The notes beneath the pieces are model-generated. The model saw only the letters and a program-made list of their open reading frames with translations, ran no database searches and was not told the DNA's origin. Below, piece after piece: positions 1 to 9,991 of a DNA stretch of 12,702 nt. Numbering within the stretch: position 1 is the first letter of the stretch; each line of letters opens with the position of its first letter. A program made the translations under genes and the position numbers. The stretch is from a virus (Duplodnaviria > Heunggongvirae > Uroviricota > Caudoviricetes). The stretch lies in IMG/VR virus record IMGVR_UViG_2563366971_000008. One strand, given 5' to 3'.

Positions 1-1698
1 CTATACTTTAAAGAACTTATTTGTCGAAGATAACTCAAGGATCGAGTTACTCATCATCATTTTCATGTCCGCATCTTCTGAAAACTTATCACTTAATATT
101 GACACAATATATTGACCATTTATATTATTTGCTTCAAAAAATATATCTCTAATTTGATTCACATCGACATCTTCAATGCTATCATGAATAACAAAAGTAG
201 GTCTCTTTAATTTAATCTTATCCACAAACTTAATATAAGCCAAATCAAATGCAGTTATTTCACCTTTCTTCTTGCCGCCATTACTGTTTGGTGTAACGCA
301 TGATATATCAAAATTACACTTACCTTTATCAACATCAAAGGAAAGATCAAAAATGTATCTTTCCCCATATATTTCCTTTGTAAGATCACCAAAAAACTCA
401 TTGAAAATCTCGATGTTTTTTTCCAGACCTTGAACTGCTAACTCTATTTCTAAAAGTAATTTCTCTCGACTATCTTCAAGAGATTTTATGAGGGCATTTG
501 TATCATTAATACGCGAAAGATTAGACTCTATGCTAGCAAGATTTTCACGTAATTCAGTAAGCTTATTAAATAATTGATTTATAGACTTTAATGTTTCAGG
601 TTCTTTGATTGTTCTAAATAGGGATGATTCTTGTTCATGAAGATCATTGATTTTTTTATTTACAGTTTCTATTTCTTCTTTTTTCTTTAACAATTCAGAT
701 TCTAAAAAACTGATTTTATTCTTAATAATATCATTATGGAACAATACCATTTCTTCGTAAGTCCTTTTAAGTTCCCCATTAAAATAAATCCCCGCAGAAT
801 TATATATTTCCATTAAATCATTTTCTACAAGTTGTATGATATTATTCTTCAAGGACAAGATCGATTCTTCGATATTTCTTACTCGCATATTTAAGGAGGC
901 ATAGCTCAAAGAATAATCACTGATATTCTTCTGTATTTCTGAAAGCTTTTTTAAGCTTTCATCATGACTATCTTTAAAATCGAAGTTCTTAATATTTCTT
1001 TCCGCCTCTGCAATTTCTTTCTTCAGAGGCTTAATCATTTTTGCTAAAACAGTCTCTCTATTTGGATTCCTGTATGCGGCAAGATATGTCTTTTGTTTTT
1101 TTATCACTTTGTTAAAATCACCTTTTTTCTTTATCAGAGGTAGCCCATTGAACCCAAATAAAAACAAGTATAATAGATCATAGACATCAGGAGTCGTATT
1201 CCCATGTAAGAAATTAAGCGTTTTCTGCATTTTATCATTCGTGTTTCTAATAAATTTATGCGAAACATTCCTCAGTGATGGCTTATCTGTAGTTAACCCA
1301 AACACTGCTTGAGCTATAAATTCAGAATATTGTTTCTTATCTACTTCAACATCATTTAAAAAATATTTTGAATTTTTATCATCAATAGATATTATACGTG
1401 AAATAACTGCCTTTTTATTTTCTACCGTATTGAAATCCAATGAAAATTTCAAAACATTATTATTAATTAACGATACAATTTCAGGTATATCTTTTCCAAA
1501 CTCTGCATCATGATAAATATCATGACCTGATGACATAAATAAATAATCTAAAACACGCGATAATGTGGATTTACCTACACTATTGCCGCTATCTTTGCCT
1601 GATGTTCTTTTATTTACAATTAGATTCAGACCGTCTTTAAACGTCACCTCTCTTACAAGAGAGTCATTTTTTAAAATAATAAGTTTATTGAGCCTCAT
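1..1698 (-). CDS. SMC/ABC-type P-loop ATPase with central coiled coil (565 aa); candidate defence ATPase
   Basis: Complete ORF with ATG at 1698-1696 and stop at 3-1. N-terminus reads like an SMC/RecF head, with Walker A SGNSVGKST around residues 37-45. Residues about 200-440 are K/E/L-rich and heptad-like. C-terminus has a signature-like SNGG and a Walker B-like TFVIHD around residues 501-506. A GGTGGA Shine-Dalgarno sits upstream. Confidence 0.8.
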   Translation of the reverse strand: MRLNKLIILKNDSLVREVTFKDGLNLIVNKRTSGKDSGNSVGKSTLSRVLDYLFMSSGHDIYHDAEFGKDIPEIVSLINNNVLKFSLDFNTVENKKAVISRIISIDDKNSKYFLNDVEVDKKQYSEFIAQAVFGLTTDKPSLRNVSHKFIRNTNDKMQKTLNFLHGNTTPDVYDLLYLFLFGFNGLPLIKKKGDFNKVIKKQKTYLAAYRNPNRETVLAKMIKPLKKEIAEAERNIKNFDFKDSHDESLKKLSEIQKNISDYSLSYASLNMRVRNIEESILSLKNNIIQLVENDLMEIYNSAGIYFNGELKRTYEEMVLFHNDIIKNKISFLESELLKKKEEIETVNKKINDLHEQESSLFRTIKEPETLKSINQLFNKLTELRENLASIESNLSRINDTNALIKSLEDSREKLLLEIELAVQGLEKNIEIFNEFFGDLTKEIYGERYIFDLSFDVDKGKCNFDISCVTPNSNGGKKKGEITAFDLAYIKFVDKIKLKRPTFVIHDSIEDVDVNQIRDIFFEANNINGQYIVSILSDKFSEDADMKMMMSNSILELSSTNKFFKV

Positions 1699-1904
1699 AT
1701 ACTATTCCACCATTTCCATCTAACTCAATTGCGCCGATTATGAAAAGCCAATCTAATTAGTAAAGAAAAAGATCAAACGATAACTCGAAGATAGAATTTA
1801 CTAAATCATACAATCGAGATATTTCAATGACCATTGAATCATTACTTTGAAAGATCCTAAGCACTACACTTCCAATATATACAGGATTTGCTTTTGGATC
1901 CGTA
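1699..1904 (-). promoter_or_regulatory. 206-bp AT-rich spacer inside the cassette with a candidate internal sigma70-like promoter for the ATPase gene
   Basis: On the minus strand, TTTACT, a 17-nt spacer, then ATAATC lies about 30 nt upstream of the ATPase ATG. The gap is unusually long for an operon. This is motif inspection only. Confidence 0.25.
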
Positions 1905-2453
1905 TCAATTGTAATCATTTGGATTCTCCAGCACTATACATTCGATAATAGCATAGCTAACAATCATACGAATGCCATAATCAATATCTTCCTGTAAAAA
2001 CTCTGAATCTAAATTAGAACACGAACTAACTGTTTCTTGAGCAGCTCTAATAACATCATCTATAATATTATCCGAGTTTTTCCTTATGAGTTCAATGTTA
2101 AATGGTTTCTCATAAAGACCATATAATCCCAATGCAGTATTATAATAACCTCTAAACTGTCTTTTCAATTTGACACTACCATTTAAAATTATAGCATCAA
2201 GTGTTTTTATGGATTCATCAACTAGCAGAGCATCTTCTTTATAAAGTTCAGCTACCCATCTGTTTCTTTTAAGATCATTGAATTCTATTTTAACATCAAT
2301 ATTTGATGCTATTCTGTTTAAGTTTTGCTCGCTACCAACTGAATTAGAAATAATTTCAATTAACTTACCAATAACACTGGCTCTTAACATTCTTGGCTGG
2401 TTGTTTATATGCACAGGACCAGTATTATTATTGAAATTAACACCAGAACCCAT
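1905..2453 (-). CDS. hypothetical protein (182 aa), middle gene of the cargo cassette
   Basis: ORF with ATG at 2453-2451, preceded by a GGGGG Shine-Dalgarno formed by the last codons of the upstream gene (stop-TT-ATG coupling). No catalytic motif recognised; few His/Cys. Same strand and AT-rich composition as its neighbours. Confidence 0.7.
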   Translation of the reverse strand: MGSGVNFNNNTGPVHINNQPRMLRASVIGKLIEIISNSVGSEQNLNRIASNIDVKIEFNDLKRNRWVAELYKEDALLVDESIKTLDAIILNGSVKLKRQFRGYYNTALGLYGLYEKPFNIELIRKNSDNIIDDVIRAAQETVSSCSNLDSEFLQEDIDYGIRMIVSYAIIECIVLENPNDYN

Positions 2454-2455
2454 AA

Positions 2456-2728
2456 TTACCCCCGATTATCAATATTCACAGGACCATTATTATCTTGAAA
2501 ATATTGAGAACGCGCTCCTTGATTAATGAAGTTTCTATTAGTTGTAATTTTTACAATCTGGGAATTAAGATCATTTATTGTAATGTTAAGTTGTTTTATC
2601 TCATTATCTTTCTTGGTTACTTGCATAGTCTGATATATTGCTATACATCCAGAGATCACCCCAACAATATATCCAAAGGCACTTACATATTCGTTAGCAA
2701 GTAGTGATGCAATCATTTGGAGCTCCAT
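2456..2728 (-). CDS. small single-pass membrane protein (90 aa; possibly 86 aa from the second ATG at 2716)
   Basis: The ORF carries a hydrophobic stretch VSAFGYIVGVISGCIAIY (about residues 15-32) followed by a charged helical tail. The internal ATG at 2716 has a better Shine-Dalgarno (GGAG, 6-nt spacer) than the first ATG. First gene of the cassette. Confidence 0.6.
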   Translation of the reverse strand: MELQMIASLLANEYVSAFGYIVGVISGCIAIYQTMQVTKKDNEIKQLNITINDLNSQIVKITTNRNFINQGARSQYFQDNNGPVNIDNRG

Positions 2729-2985: not shown

Positions 2986-3004
2986 GTGCTTTCCCCGCCT
3001 CGCC
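2986..3004 (-). other. P2/P4-type cos site (19-nt cohesive-end core)
   Basis: Minus strand reads GGCGAGGCGGGGAAAGCAC, which I recall as the P2/P4 cohesive-end sequence. It lies just downstream of psu, as in P4. Confidence 0.6.
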
Positions 3005-3168: not shown

Positions 3169-3741
3169 TTACACAGACTGACGTGATGCCAGTTGCGCAC
3201 TTTTACGCGAAAAAATCATGTTCTGCGCAGGGGTGAATTTTTCACGGCTGTCATCCACCGAAGCCGCGTCAGGCCTGAATCCGATGGTCGTTAAAATGTC
3301 GCTATCCTGTGCGGAATAATTAATTTTTTCCCCCTTCGCAAGCCAGGACAGAAGGGCTTCACGCAGGGCATCTGTGGCACGCTGTATGGCACAGTTTCGG
3401 GCAATGGCCGTCAGCTCACTGTAGCCCATCAGCTCCGGTGCCAGTGCGGCCGCCAGTGCTGTGCCGTGCTGCTGCATAAAATCATTCAGCCGGTCGCGGA
3501 TGCTGATGTGCTGAACGGCTTCATGCGAACGAATATAACGACCGGCAGCCTGATTCACCTGCCATTTTCTGACTTCGATAATATTGCGTAATTCGTCCAG
3601 GCGACTGACGTTTCTGCCTTCCCCTGACAGAAGCCGCAGATATTCCTGTTCGGCCGCAGCCAGCTCATTTTTGCGTTGCAGCCATGCTGCTTTGTTATTC
3701 TGACAGGTGTCAAAGGCCTGCTGTAAGGCTGTGCTTTCCAT
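3169..3741 (-). CDS. psu: Psu-like polarity suppression / capsid decoration protein (190 aa)
   Basis: 190 aa, the same length as P4 Psu, and last gene of the sid-delta-psu block next to cos. N-terminus MESTALQQAF matches my recollection of P4 Psu. Confidence 0.85.
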   Translation of the reverse strand: MESTALQQAFDTCQNNKAAWLQRKNELAAAEQEYLRLLSGEGRNVSRLDELRNIIEVRKWQVNQAAGRYIRSHEAVQHISIRDRLNDFMQQHGTALAAALAPELMGYSELTAIARNCAIQRATDALREALLSWLAKGEKINYSAQDSDILTTIGFRPDAASVDDSREKFTPAQNMIFSRKSAQLASRQSV

Positions 3742-3814: not shown

Positions 3815-4315
3815 TCATTCCAGACGCAGCGAATATGATTGTGTTTTTAAGCGTACTGGCGGCAGTTCCTGTTTTTCATGCAGGCTTTCTGCCAGTTCGT
3901 CCGGCGTGACCGGGCGGACAATAAAACGGTTGATGGTCTGAAGCGTTTTAAACACCAGACCACATCCCGGATCCGTGCACACATAAAAACGCTCGGTGAC
4001 TTCCTGAGACAGACGCCGCGATGTTCTTGACAGTGCAAGGCCTTTACATCTCCGACAACAATATCCGGTAACAAGCATTCTTTTCGGGCGTTTCATACTG
4101 CCGGAGGCTGACGTCAGTGAATCGCGGTATCTCTGTTTGCCTGAAATGTATTCCATTCCTGAATCTTTACTGTCAGAGAAAAAGCTTTCACTCGCTTCAA
4201 ATGTCGCAGAGCAATAAATATTCCGGCACTGTGCAATCATTATCTTGGTGCCATCGTCCATGAAATGTGCGCGGCGGGTGTGAGCAACATGTCCACACGA
4301 CGGGCAGTAAATCAT
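3815..4315 (-). CDS. delta: Delta-like late transcription activator (166 aa, tandem Ogr-type zinc finger)
   Basis: Two Ogr-like Cys motifs (CPSCGH...CRNIYC and CRRCKG...CTDPGC). 166 aa equals P4 Delta. Its ATG overlaps the sid stop (ATGA), as in P4. Confidence 0.85.
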   Translation of the reverse strand: MIYCPSCGHVAHTRRAHFMDDGTKIMIAQCRNIYCSATFEASESFFSDSKDSGMEYISGKQRYRDSLTSASGSMKRPKRMLVTGYCCRRCKGLALSRTSRRLSQEVTERFYVCTDPGCGLVFKTLQTINRFIVRPVTPDELAESLHEKQELPPVRLKTQSYSLRLE

Positions 4316-5064
4316 GACAGCACTCCTCTGGCCTTAAGCACTGCTCCCTGCTGGTCTATTTTGTCCTGCCACACCTTGCGCTGTGCCGGTGTGCCTGCCA
4401 CCTCATAATCCATGTGAGGAAGTGTTGCCGCTGACAGTCCGGTCAGCCGGAGAACCGGCTCGCCGGTGAGGCTGATTTGCATCTGTTTAATTTTCTGTTC
4501 CAGCGATGATTTCACCTGCTGCATGACAGCCTTTTCCGGTGCGACGTAGCCCTGATGGCCGGTGGTGTTGGCGAGCGGATTTTCCTGTACCAGAATGCTC
4601 AGATGCATTGCCCGGACAAGCGCCTCACAGGTTTCATTCAGGGCGTGTTCCAGCTCATGCTCTGCATACAGACTCAGAAGGTGATGATGTGCCTTCCGGT
4701 AGGCGGTGGCCGTGCTGTCACACGCCCCTTTCAGGCGTTCACGTTCGAAATTCAGCACCACGGCCAGATTGTCATATTCCTGTACCAGCTCCCGGCGTGC
4801 CACGCGCTCAATGTGGCGCTGTTTCAGCTCGTCGCTCAGGACACCACCGGCTGCACGAAAGGCCGTGCGCCAGTCGTCAGCGTCGTTTCCGTCGGCCTGC
4901 GCCAGCGCATTTTTTTCCTGCTCTGCCCGTTCAATGGCCGTGACGGTCTCATCCATCAGGCGGGCGTTCTCAAGATGGGCGGCTCTGGCCTTTTCCAGTT
5001 GTGCCAGCGCGGGTTGCAGATATTCAGGGATGGTGTTGTCAGACATTTTCCGGCTCCTCGTCAC
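4312..5064 (-). CDS. sid: Sid-like external scaffold / capsid size determination protein (250 aa)
   Basis: Position upstream of delta with translational coupling. Size is close to P4 Sid (about 244 aa). Alanine- and glutamate-rich helical protein. Confidence 0.8.
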   Translation of the reverse strand: MTRSRKMSDNTIPEYLQPALAQLEKARAAHLENARLMDETVTAIERAEQEKNALAQADGNDADDWRTAFRAAGGVLSDELKQRHIERVARRELVQEYDNLAVVLNFERERLKGACDSTATAYRKAHHHLLSLYAEHELEHALNETCEALVRAMHLSILVQENPLANTTGHQGYVAPEKAVMQQVKSSLEQKIKQMQISLTGEPVLRLTGLSAATLPHMDYEVAGTPAQRKVWQDKIDQQGAVLKARGVLS

Positions 5065-7658: not shown

Positions 7659-8624
7659 ATGAAAATGAACGTAACCGCCACCGTCAGCCATGCGCTCGGC
7701 CACTGGCCGCGTATCCTCCCGGCGCTGGGGATTCAGGTGCTGAAAAACCGTCATCAGCCCTGTCCGGTCTGTGGCGGGAGTGACCGCTTCCGTTTTGATG
7801 ACAGGGAGGGGCGCGGCACCTGGTACTGCAATCAGTGTGGTGCCGGTGACGGCCTGAAACTGGTTGAAAAGGTGTTTGGTGTCTCCCCGTCCGACGCGGC
7901 CACAAAGGTGGCTGCCGTGACCGGCAGCCTGCCCCCGGCTGACCCGGCAGTGACGGCCGCCGCCGGTGCTGAAACAGACGCTGCCCGGAAGAACGCCGCC
8001 GCACTGGCACAAACCCTGATGGCGAAAACCCGTCCCGGAACCGGTAACGCCTACCTGACCCGCAAGGGCTTTCCCGGCCGGGAATGCCGGATGCTGACCG
8101 GCACACACAGAGCCGGTGGCGTGAGCTGGCGTGCCGGTGACCTTGTGGTGCCACTGTATGACGACAGCGGCGAACTGGTTAACCTTCAGTTAATCAGTGC
8201 TGACGGCCGTAAGCGCACCCTGAAAGGCGGACAGGTCAGGGGCACCTGTCACACCCTTGAAGGACAGAATCAGGCCGGAAAACGTCTGTGGATAGCGGAG
8301 GGATACGCGACCGCACTTACCGTGCATCACCTGACCGGTGAAACGGTGATGGTGGCGCTTTCTTCCGTGAATCTCCTTTCTCTGGCCAGCCTTGCCCGGC
8401 AGAAGCATCCGGCCTGTCAGATTGTCCTTGCTGCTGACCGTGACCTCAGCGGTGACGGCCAGAAAAAAGCCGCCGCAGCCGCAGATGCGTGTGAAGGTGT
8501 GTTGCCCTGCCGCCGGTCTTCGGTGACTGGAATGATGCCTTCACGCAGTACGGCGGGGAAGCCACCCGTAAGGCCATTTATGATGCCATCCGGCCACCGG
8601 CTGAAAGCCCGTTCGACACCATGA
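7659..8624 (+). CDS. alpha: alpha primase-helicase, N-terminal fragment (zinc-binding primase/TOPRIM part), interrupted by a frameshift
   Basis: AAGGAGA Shine-Dalgarno. CPVCGG...CNQCG zinc motif, then EGYATA and AADRD TOPRIM-like motifs. After about residue 280 the translation becomes Arg/Pro/Ser-rich nonsense, while the protein-like sequence continues in another frame. Confidence 0.8.
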   Translation: MKMNVTATVSHALGHWPRILPALGIQVLKNRHQPCPVCGGSDRFRFDDREGRGTWYCNQCGAGDGLKLVEKVFGVSPSDAATKVAAVTGSLPPADPAVTAAAGAETDAARKNAAALAQTLMAKTRPGTGNAYLTRKGFPGRECRMLTGTHRAGGVSWRAGDLVVPLYDDSGELVNLQLISADGRKRTLKGGQVRGTCHTLEGQNQAGKRLWIAEGYATALTVHHLTGETVMVALSSVNLLSLASLARQKHPACQIVLAADRDLSGDGQKKAAAAADACEGVLPCRRSSVTGMMPSRSTAGKPPVRPFMMPSGHRLKARSTP

Positions 8625-9991
8625 GCGAAGCGGAGTTTTCCGCCATGAGTACCAGCGAAAAGGCCATGCGTATCTATGAGCATTACGGCGAGGCGCTCGC
8701 GGTTGATGCCAACGGCCAGCTTCTGTCCCGTTATGAAAATGGTGTCTGGAAGGTGCTGCCACCACAGGACTTTGCCCGGGATGTGGCCGGGCTGTTTCAG
8801 CGGCTGCGCGCGCCGTTCTCCTCCGGGAAGGTGGCCTCCGTGGTGGACACCCTGAAGCTGATTATTCCGCAGCAGGAAGCCCCCTCCCGCCGCCTGATTG
8901 GCTTTCGTAACGGCGTGCTCGACACGCAGAACGGCACGTTCCACCCGCACAGTCCGTCACACTGGATGCGCACCCTGTGCGATGTGGATTTCACCCCACC
9001 GGTGGAAGGGGAAACGCTGGAAACCCACGCCCCCGCGTTCTGGCGCTGGCTTGACCGTGCCGCCGGTGGCCGTGCGGAAAAACGCGACGTGATTCTGGCC
9101 GCACTGTTTATGGTGCTGGCAAACCGCTATGACTGGCAGCTCTTTCTGGAGGTGACCGGTCCCGGCGGCAGCGGCAAAAGTATCATGGCCGAAATAGCCA
9201 CCCTGCTGGCCGGGGAGGATAACGCCACGTCGGCCACCATTGAGACGCTGGAATCCCCGCGTGAACGTGCCGCGTTAACTGGCTTCTCACTGATACGCCT
9301 GCCGGACCAGGAAAAATGGAGCGGCGACGGTGCCGGACTCAAGGCCATCACCGGCGGCGATGCGGTGTCCGTGGACCCGAAATACCGGGATGCGTACTCC
9401 ACGCATATCCCGGCGGTGATTCTGGCCGTGAACAATAACCCGATGCGCTTCACCGACCGCAGCGGCGGCGTGTCACGCCGGCGGGTGATTATTCACTTCC
9501 CGGAACAGATAGCCCCGCAGGAGCGCGACCCGCAGCTTAAGGACAAAATCACCCGCGAGCTGGCGGTCATCGTGCGTCACCTGATGCAGAAGTTCAGCGA
9601 CCCGATGCTCGCCCGGTCACTGCTTCAGTCCCAGCAGAACTCAGACGAGGCACTGAACATCAAACGGGATGCCGACCCGACGTTTGATTTTATCGGCTAT
9701 CTGGAAACCCTGCCGCAGACCAGCGGCATGTATATGGGGAACGCCAGTATCATCCCGCGTAACTACCGTAAATACCTCTATCACGCCTATCTGGCCTACA
9801 TGGAGGCAAACGGCTACCGGAATGTACTCAGTCTGAAAATGTTCGGGCTGGGGCTGCCGGTGATGCTGAAGGAATACGGGCTGAATTACGAGAAGCGCCA
9901 TACCAAACAGGGGATACAGACCAACCTGACGCTGAAAGAGGAAAGCTACGGCGACTGGCTGCCAAAATGTGACGACCCTGCAACAACCTGA
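8495..9991 (+). CDS. alpha: alpha primase-helicase, C-terminal fragment (helicase with Walker A GPGGSGKS, plus C-terminal DNA-binding part)
   Basis: This frame is open from 8495 (first ATG at 8621) and reads VALPPVFGDWNDAFTQYGGEATRKAIYDAIRPP before the listed ORF. The two fragments sum to 777 aa, the length of P4 alpha. Confidence 0.8.
   Translation, partial: RCVALPPVFGDWNDAFTQYGGEATRKAIYDAIRPPAESPFDTMSEAEFSAMSTSEKAMRIYEHYGEALAVDANGQLLSRYENGVWKVLPPQDFARDVAGLFQRLRAPFSSGKVASVVDTLKLIIPQQEAPSRRLIGFRNGVLDTQNGTFHPHSPSHWMRTLCDVDFTPPVEGETLETHAPAFWRWLDRAAGGRAEKRDVILAALFMVLANRYDWQLFLEVTGPGGSGKSIMAEIATLLAGEDNATSATIETLESPRERAALTGFSLIRLPDQEKWSGDGAGLKAITGGDAVSVDPKYRDAYSTHIPAVILAVNNNPMRFTDRSGGVSRRRVIIHFPEQIAPQERDPQLKDKITRELAVIVRHLMQKFSDPMLARSLLQSQQNSDEALNIKRDADPTFDFIGYLETLPQTSGMYMGNASIIPRNYRKYLYHAYLAYMEANGYRNVLSLKMFGLGLPVMLKEYGLNYEKRHTKQGIQTNLTLKEESYGDWLPKCDDPATT

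Follow-up and report, generated by a model that had tools for sequence, protein, structure and literature searches.

The stretch of DNA analysed here, called the window below, comprises 12,702 nucleotides (IMG/VR record IMGVR_UViG_2563366971_000008) and is a P4-like satellite carrying psu (3169-3741), delta (3815-4315), sid (4312-5064) and the alpha primase-helicase region (7659-9991); in E. coli genomes the satellite is integrated beside ssrA, with the integrase just past window position 1. Positions 1-2800 have a G+C content of 30%, as against 50-63% in the remaining element, and this block consists of four genes, all on the minus strand, situated in the int-psu interval. In the 5′ to 3′ order of the cassette they encode a small membrane protein, a 182-aa LmuA-like protein, MC6 (LmuC) and a DUF2326 ABC ATPase (LmuB), and by its gene content we identify the cassette as a four-gene short Lamassu/ABC-3C system in which LmuA is reduced to its C-terminal domain. 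The int-psu interval of P4-like satellites is a published hotspot of defence systems, and the proposal of an initial annotation of this DNA that the small gene is the first of a defence-type operon is borne out by a Lamassu/ABC-3C-like cassette in this position.

The satellite itself seems to be decaying, judging from its alpha gene, which is a single 777-aa gene in E. coli DSM 103246, the reference for this comparison, and which in the window is split near position 8500 by a 1-nt deletion into two plus-strand ORFs (7659-8624 and 8621-9991). Between psu and the defence cassette, at 2986-3004 on the minus strand, lies an exact 19-nt match to GGCGAGGCGGGGAAAGCAC, which we take to be the P2/P4 cohesive-end (cos) sequence; no such match arose in 200 shuffles. 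A scan of the minus strand from the cos site to the start of the small gene (2729-2985) found no sigma-70-like promoter match.

The last gene of the cassette (1-1698, minus strand) encodes an SMC/Rad50-like ABC ATPase that matched Pfam DUF2326 (1.2e-17), PADLOC PDC-M68B (1.4e-45) and, over the full length (residues 1-533), PADLOC LmuB (2.7e-15). Its length of 565 aa and its Walker B sequence, FVIHDS, which fits the pattern hhhhD[Q/S/T/E] reported for short Lamassu, agree with a LmuB of the ‘short’ type; a comparison with PDB sequences returned nothing meaningful. Between LmuA and LmuB lies a small middle component, MC6 (1757-1918, minus strand), of which 53 of 77 codons are left in the window, as seen by alignment with E. 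coli DSM 103246, whose four-gene operon (MC6 intact) lies at 1249991-1252706 of NZ_CP019944. The truncation is due to a nonsense change from TCA to TAA at 1757-1759 on the minus strand (altered base 1758). Pfam MC6 matches the gene in related loci, and in 22 of the 28 E. coli copies PGAP labels its 77-aa product ‘ABC-three component system middle component 6’. Six of the 28 complete E. coli genomes with the cassette, all from human isolates, have the truncated allele, and in these MC6 is unannotated. Because MC6 is truncated and tested Lamassu systems, for which the published data concern other subtypes, require all of their components, LmuC and the effector domain included, the window copy of the system is probably inactive.

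The 182-aa protein (1905-2453, minus strand) was assigned to LmuA from Pfam, AF2 and Foldseek. Pfam CTD10 is weak in the window copy (E 0.004) and matches 15 of 25 members of the family, with a best value of 9e-7. The AF2 model (pLDDT 78) is all-helical apart from a disordered stretch over the first 20 residues, and its best fold matches are LmuA and YydB, the latter being the top Foldseek match in the PDB, as part of a YydD-YydB model (probability 1.0, E 0.09, TM 0.52). The CTD10 and fold signals, weak one by one, are mutually consistent and agree on an LmuA C-terminal domain, which places the protein with LmuA proteins bearing an ABC-3C C-terminal domain (CTD1-12). Comparison of its profile with PDB sequences gave nothing meaningful, and neither NCBIfam, whose matches were far below threshold, nor PADLOC returned anything significant for the 182-aa protein or MC6. 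ABC-3C, CTD10 and MC6 were reportedly defined by Krishnan et al. 2020.

The 182-aa protein lacks an effector domain N-terminal to the CTD; beyond the disordered residues 1-20 it consists of the helical CTD alone. Pfam, AF2 and Foldseek matched no enzyme or toxin fold, and nearly all listed members of the family share the length of 182 aa, so that there is no space for an enzyme domain. Among its strongly conserved polar residues are E155, D156 and those of a C-terminal IIECIVLENPND element. The most conserved part of the protein is the C-terminal element SYSIIECIVLENPND (1905-1955), with eleven invariant positions; because this element and the tail of the small protein are the most constrained sequences of the system, SYSIIECIVLENPND is a candidate contact site.

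The small membrane protein gene and its distribution

The initial annotation described a protein of about 90 aa encoded at 2456-2728, with no strand given. The open reading frame is real and lies on the minus strand of the ORF list; its length, in contrast, needs revision. An in-frame upstream ATG at 2728 yields 90 aa and a second ATG, at 2716, yields 86 aa. The second ATG is the probable start, because RefSeq/PGAP begins the protein there (WP_001553315.1), most homologues have 83-86 aa and begin MIAS..., and direct reading of the sequence places a Shine-Dalgarno-like GGAG (2723-2726, minus strand) 6 nt 5′ of it, so that the gene would span 2456-2716 and encode 86 aa plus a stop. The suggested stop-TT-ATG coupling to the 182-aa gene can be read directly from the junction, TAA(2458-2456)-TT-ATG(2453-2451).

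A 182-aa profile search found 18 genome loci, and in all 18 an ORF carrying the tail motif described below lies directly upstream of the 182-aa gene, either with a gap of 1-5 nt or with a 4-nt overlap. The hosts include Tatumella, Enterobacter, Kosakonia, Photorhabdus, Methylophilaceae, Marinobacterium, Pseudidiomarina, Oleispira, Pseudoalteromonas, Colwellia, Microbulbifer, Francisellaceae, Crenothrix, Vibrio and Oceanospirillum, and the presence of MC6 and DUF2326 downstream was confirmed in those loci having gene calls. The four-gene layout also occurs in V. parahaemolyticus and Azotobacter, and it is kept by the most divergent small proteins found (P0243 and P0244), one of them in a P2-like prophage. 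Because none of the related loci examined, which come from many Proteobacteria, lacks it directly upstream, we regard the small gene as an obligate fourth component of the system. The cassette is rare in E. coli (28 of 5,426 complete genomes), and only four loci with the small gene are present in IMG/VR. In Siccibacter colletis (L008, 3765-3998), one of the 18 loci, the half of the small gene that codes for the transmembrane segment is out of frame while the coiled coil and tail are in frame, and this copy may be a pseudogene. A divergent four-gene copy on a Logan contig (SRR6869397; L025, 4001-6876) lies inside a P2-like prophage, with the tail genes gpD/gpU on one side and, on the other, regulatory genes of which one is Peptidase_S24 repressor-like; its small protein was called at 122 aa, with an additional N-terminal hydrophobic segment.

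Relatives of the small protein were recovered in 22 clusters by a word-seeded search, in 189 clusters at 90% identity, all small proteins, by a profile that included distant members, and in 31 clusters at 50% identity, nearly all of 80-140 aa, when 1.84 billion representatives were searched exhaustively with an HMM. Among enterobacterial orthologues dN/dS was 0.05-0.22 (dN 0.04-0.08, dS up to 0.3-0.76), which points to purifying selection. From these cluster counts, the dN/dS values and the constant presence of the ORF upstream of the 182-aa gene, we conclude that it is a real, conserved gene, beyond what chance would give. Two plus-strand ORFs (2278-2526 and 2495-2704), which run antisense to a pair of conserved genes, were rejected as by-products of these. 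The small protein had no significant match in Pfam, NCBIfam or PADLOC, its profile found nothing meaningful among PDB sequences, and the kinship to holins or abortive-infection toxins raised in the initial annotation is accordingly not upheld. Matches in PHROGs were weak only, to families of unknown function.

Anatomy of the small protein and a motif shared with its neighbour

Hydrophobicity, flanking charges, heptads and AF2 together define a transmembrane (TM) segment at residues 8-29 (2630-2695, minus strand), N-E-YVSAFGYIVGVISGCIAIY-Q. Across 20 members the best 19-residue Kyte-Doolittle mean is 1.7-2.8 and the summed Hessa value ranges from -2.6 to +2.7 kcal/mol; the least hydrophobic helix of the family is that of E. 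coli (Kyte-Doolittle 1.73, Hessa sum +2.4), which we counted against an effector role. The N-terminal flank of 9-13 residues is acidic and free of K/R in 19 of the 20 members, whereas the 15 residues past the helix contain 2-5 K/R, and a single TM helix with N-out/C-in topology is therefore predicted. This call, which agrees with the one hydrophobic helix previously noted, was made from hydropathy scales, flank charges and AF2. The AF2 model, which was obtained from a natural fusion of the small and 182-aa proteins (P0025, described below) with an alignment of both families, has one unbroken helix at residues 9-59, with a pLDDT of 75-81 across the TM part, followed by coil at residues 60-90 (pLDDT 44-54).

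Heptads and AF2 also place a cytoplasmic basic stretch and a short coiled coil at residues 30-57 (2546-2629, minus strand), in which about 3.5 heptads follow the K/R-rich stretch, and the C-terminal tail occupies residues 64-86 (2459-2527, minus strand), as judged from conservation in 31 diverse members and from the AF2 coil. What was initially read as one charged helical tail is thus partly so, in its basic stretch and coiled coil, but its end is non-helical and consists of a conserved motif. By these features the small protein is predicted to be a bitopic inner-membrane protein with a short N-terminus outside, a TM helix, and a coiled coil and tail in the cytoplasm.

The TM helix and the coiled coil share one heptad register. 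In the 31-sequence alignment, the a/d positions of the TM segment are N8, G/S12, G15, S/G19, A/S22, A26 and Q29, and these cells are small or Asn/Gln in 98% of cases versus 15% at other TM positions (permutation p 2e-5, to be read in the light of a register picked post hoc, after inspection of the data, from seven possible ones). The same register continues into the cytoplasm, where V/I/L make up 94-97% at positions 40, 43, 47 and 50. The E. coli protein contains a GxxxGxxxG sequence (G15-x3-G19-x3-G23), and a glycine-zipper stripe is present in the family, with G15 at 100%, S/G at 100% at position 19 and A/S/G at 100% at positions 22, 23 and 26. We infer that the protein may form a parallel homo-oligomeric helix bundle spanning from the membrane to the cytoplasm.

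The tail is the best-conserved region of the protein. The consensus of its last 21 residues, QGEKSQYFQ[DE]NxG[PS]VNIDNRG, is nearly unchanged in members that are just 36-45% identical overall. The N-terminal region of the 182-aa protein holds a copy of this tail motif (GSGVNFNNNTGPVHINN, 2400-2450, minus strand), recognised by joint alignment, and the motif F-x-x-N-x-G-[PS]-[VI]-x-[IV]-x-N is common to both proteins in 22 of the 22 pairs listed. The shared core is about 12-17 residues long with a largely conserved proline; in the joint alignment of the two families F and N are invariant and G is nearly so. Even the outliers keep the pair, with NHGVMNIDN and NYGIVNIGN in L025 and STGTINIK and SFGPINF in L024. 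In AF2 monomers the motif is low-confidence coil or disorder in both proteins. When motif copies were compared at positions with an identical amino acid, the third base was the same at just 69 of 121 (57%), by which ongoing gene conversion was ruled out as the source of the shared motif; the similarity is therefore held by protein-level selection.

The two proteins also occur as one. An ENA metagenome contig of 1398 nt encodes P0025, a 248-aa in-frame fusion of the small and 182-aa proteins joined at the motif, which fits a 65-nt deletion between the motif copies or an assembly collapse. In the fusion the small protein precedes the CTD, just as the effector does in canonical LmuA. We rejected a stable TM-CTD fusion as the normal form of the system, since P0025 is seen on one metagenomic contig only and is explained by the 65-nt deletion.

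Likeness to short Lamassu, amyloid-signalling pairs and membrane effectors

A review treats Lamassu and ABC-3C as synonyms, and the present cassette resembles the short Lamassu/ABC-3C systems V. cholerae DdmABC and Salmonella LmuACB in its SMC-like ATPase of about 565 aa, its MC6 and its CTD protein, as well as in gene order, overlapping genes and location in mobile-element defence hotspots. It differs from them in that LmuA is without an N-terminal effector domain and is preceded by a fourth gene, for a membrane protein. Haudiquet et al. described effector-less short Lamassu, with more than 100 sequences from more than 40 species and with LmuC and LmuB intact, in which LmuA has ‘seemingly lost the effector domain’; one such variant was located in P4 hotspots. 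The description of these systems (Clade O and the P4 variant) fits the present family, a likening made by description only. The papers on effector-less Lamassu mention neither a membrane-protein gene upstream nor a shared motif, and no membrane effector appears among Lamassu effectors in the published Lamassu literature examined, a scope that leaves Krishnan et al. 2020 outside.

The arrangement of the motif is that of the amyloid-signalling pairs Bab/Agp, BELL/NLR (BASS) and HET-S/NWD2. As in these, the small protein has a hydrophobic helix near its N-terminus and ends in an N/Q/G-rich motif of about 20 residues that is repeated at the N-terminus of the adjacent gene's product, the neighbouring product would transmit an infection signal, and the setting is a prophage or satellite hotspot. 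In E. coli Bab/Agp, the BASS11 motif is amyloid-forming, the effector side is seeded by the receptor side upon T5 infection, and Bab moves to the membrane; BELL/NLR pairs carry BASS motifs. In the present family, however, a Lamassu CTD protein is the partner in place of an NLR or a TPR-GreAB-PIN protein, and the shared core, at about 12-17 residues, is shorter and includes a mostly conserved proline. The helix of the small protein is hydrophobic enough for constitutive insertion, whereas Bab stays soluble up to its activation. No Bell/HeLo/HELL effector domain was found by Pfam (HeLo, Helo_like and relatives) at E<0.1 or by comparison of the family profile with PDB sequences, and only the N-terminal hydrophobic helix is analogous.

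Small TM proteins that are switched on by a ligand or by oligomerisation serve as effectors in several defence systems, including Cap14 and Cap15 of CBASS, PycTM of Pycsar, Cam1 of type III CRISPR, the Cas13b-associated Csx28, the retron 2TM protein and RexB. The small protein of the cassette would resemble these in being a small TM protein at the end of a sensing pathway, and it differs from them in having one TM helix and no ligand-binding domain and in its partner, an SMC-type sensor complex to which a peptide motif would couple it; it was not found to be related to them in sequence or fold. In the general view stated by Rousset et al., small TM proteins that end sensing pathways abort infection by depolarising the membrane.

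Candidate roles of the small protein in the cassette

In canonical LmuA an N-terminal effector domain is fused to the C-terminal domain. According to the published structures, the C-terminal oligomerisation domain of LmuA is sequestered by LmuB2-LmuC until DNA sensing liberates it, after which liberated LmuA assembles into tetramers and the N-terminal effector is switched on, a principle that, in the view of the authors of these structures, may extend to non-nuclease effectors. Because the LmuA of the present cassette is without an effector domain and the cassette offers no other candidate, the small protein is its sole candidate effector, and its gene occupies the very place of the missing domain. 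We therefore favour, with a probability of about one half, the reading that the small protein is a detached membrane effector of short Lamassu, which would be clustered into a lesion when the LmuA domain oligomerises. Of the earlier idea of a minimal membrane effector, the effector role thus stands as the best available explanation, while kinship to known toxins does not.

As a detached effector module, the small membrane protein would dock non-covalently, through its invariant cytoplasmic tail, to the LmuA-CTD protein that bears the same motif at its N-terminus. Sensing of phage DNA by LmuB would then liberate the CTD, and CTD oligomers would pull the TM-coiled-coil helices together into a parallel bundle with an interior of Gly/Ser/Ala and with rings of Asn and Gln at the two membrane boundaries. 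Such a bundle would breach or depolarise the inner membrane and so abort the infection. Docking via the motif, activation driven by oligomerisation, and membrane damage are all inferred steps. By analogy with the amyloid pairs, the shared motif might instead be a templating, amyloid-like beta-arch signal that is wired to an SMC-type DNA sensor and not to an NLR; the N-terminal motifs of oligomerised LmuA-CTD proteins would then stack and convert many tails, again leading to a membrane lesion. This version is doubtful, and the mostly conserved proline inside the motif disfavours a continuous beta-strand.

The features that suggest an effector may also be read in other ways. The small protein might be harmless and act as a membrane anchor only, with a tail that tethers the LmuB2-LmuC-CTD complex to the inner membrane, for example near the ends of entering phage DNA, while protection or killing would come from something else or from DNA-end binding alone. 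Such a role would suit a tail that is far more conserved than the TM helix or the coiled coil, a single hydrophobic helix, which is the usual form of an anchor, and a positive-inside bias that places the tail in the cytoplasm with the Lamassu proteins. An anchor, however, would have no need for the invariant G15, A26 and Q29 or for a full stripe of small and polar a/d residues in register with the coiled coil, and every tested Lamassu needs an effector activity for which the cassette encodes no other candidate; we consider this role rather unlikely. Still lower in probability is a regulator or inhibitor, antitoxin-like or threshold-setting, that keeps a toxic 182-aa protein inactive at the membrane. 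Here the tail would mimic the N-terminal motif of the 182-aa protein and compete for the same site, as the presence of the motif in both proteins would allow, and the strongly conserved polar residues of the 182-aa protein (E155, D156 and IIECIVLENPND) would fit a toxic activity. Against this, the 182-aa protein is all-helical and CTD-like and matches no enzyme or toxin fold, and both the gene order and the P0025 fusion mimic the order effector-CTD and not a toxin-antitoxin pair.

That the gene is an unrelated neighbour, either a holin-like lysis gene or an FtsL/DivIC-like division gene, is very improbable. Like holins and FtsL/DivIC, the protein is small and has one TM helix with an adjoining coiled coil, and some automatic annotations of its relatives read ‘cell division protein FtsL’. 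The Pfam matches behind this resemblance, however, are weak and below threshold (18.0 bits for DivIC, with a cut-off of 28.9, and 13.7 bits for FtsL_2, with a cut-off of 24.6). FtsL is N-in with a periplasmic coiled coil, and the coiled coil predicted here to be cytoplasmic is the reverse of that topology. Neither Pfam nor PHROGs matched the protein to a holin family, the small gene is flanked by Lamassu genes and P4 psu with no division genes among them, neither an endolysin nor a lysis cassette lies near the small gene in the window ORFs or the E. coli genome context, and the synteny and tight coupling with a CTD10-like gene are obligate across very different genomic settings. Identity as a holin or as FtsL/DivIC was rejected on these grounds of threshold, context and topology. 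The remaining probability belongs to mechanisms beyond those considered here.

Lamassu is present in about 10-15% of genomes and is among the commonest bacterial defence families, and its activation, by liberation and oligomerisation of LmuA, was recently solved for nuclease effectors. The effector-less clade is a loose end of this literature that would be explained if the small protein is the effector. In that case, cloning ‘effector-less’ variants without the small upstream ORF could produce false negatives in defence screens. There would also be a possible link to amyloid-type signalling; if the amyloid version of the proposal were true, the effector-less clade would be a four-component system with a prion-like relay, and amyloid signalling would extend to Lamassu and to common Gammaproteobacteria. 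If the small protein is a detached membrane effector, as we favour, membrane attack would join the Lamassu repertoire, through an effector that is coupled non-covalently via a short shared motif, a simple and portable design.
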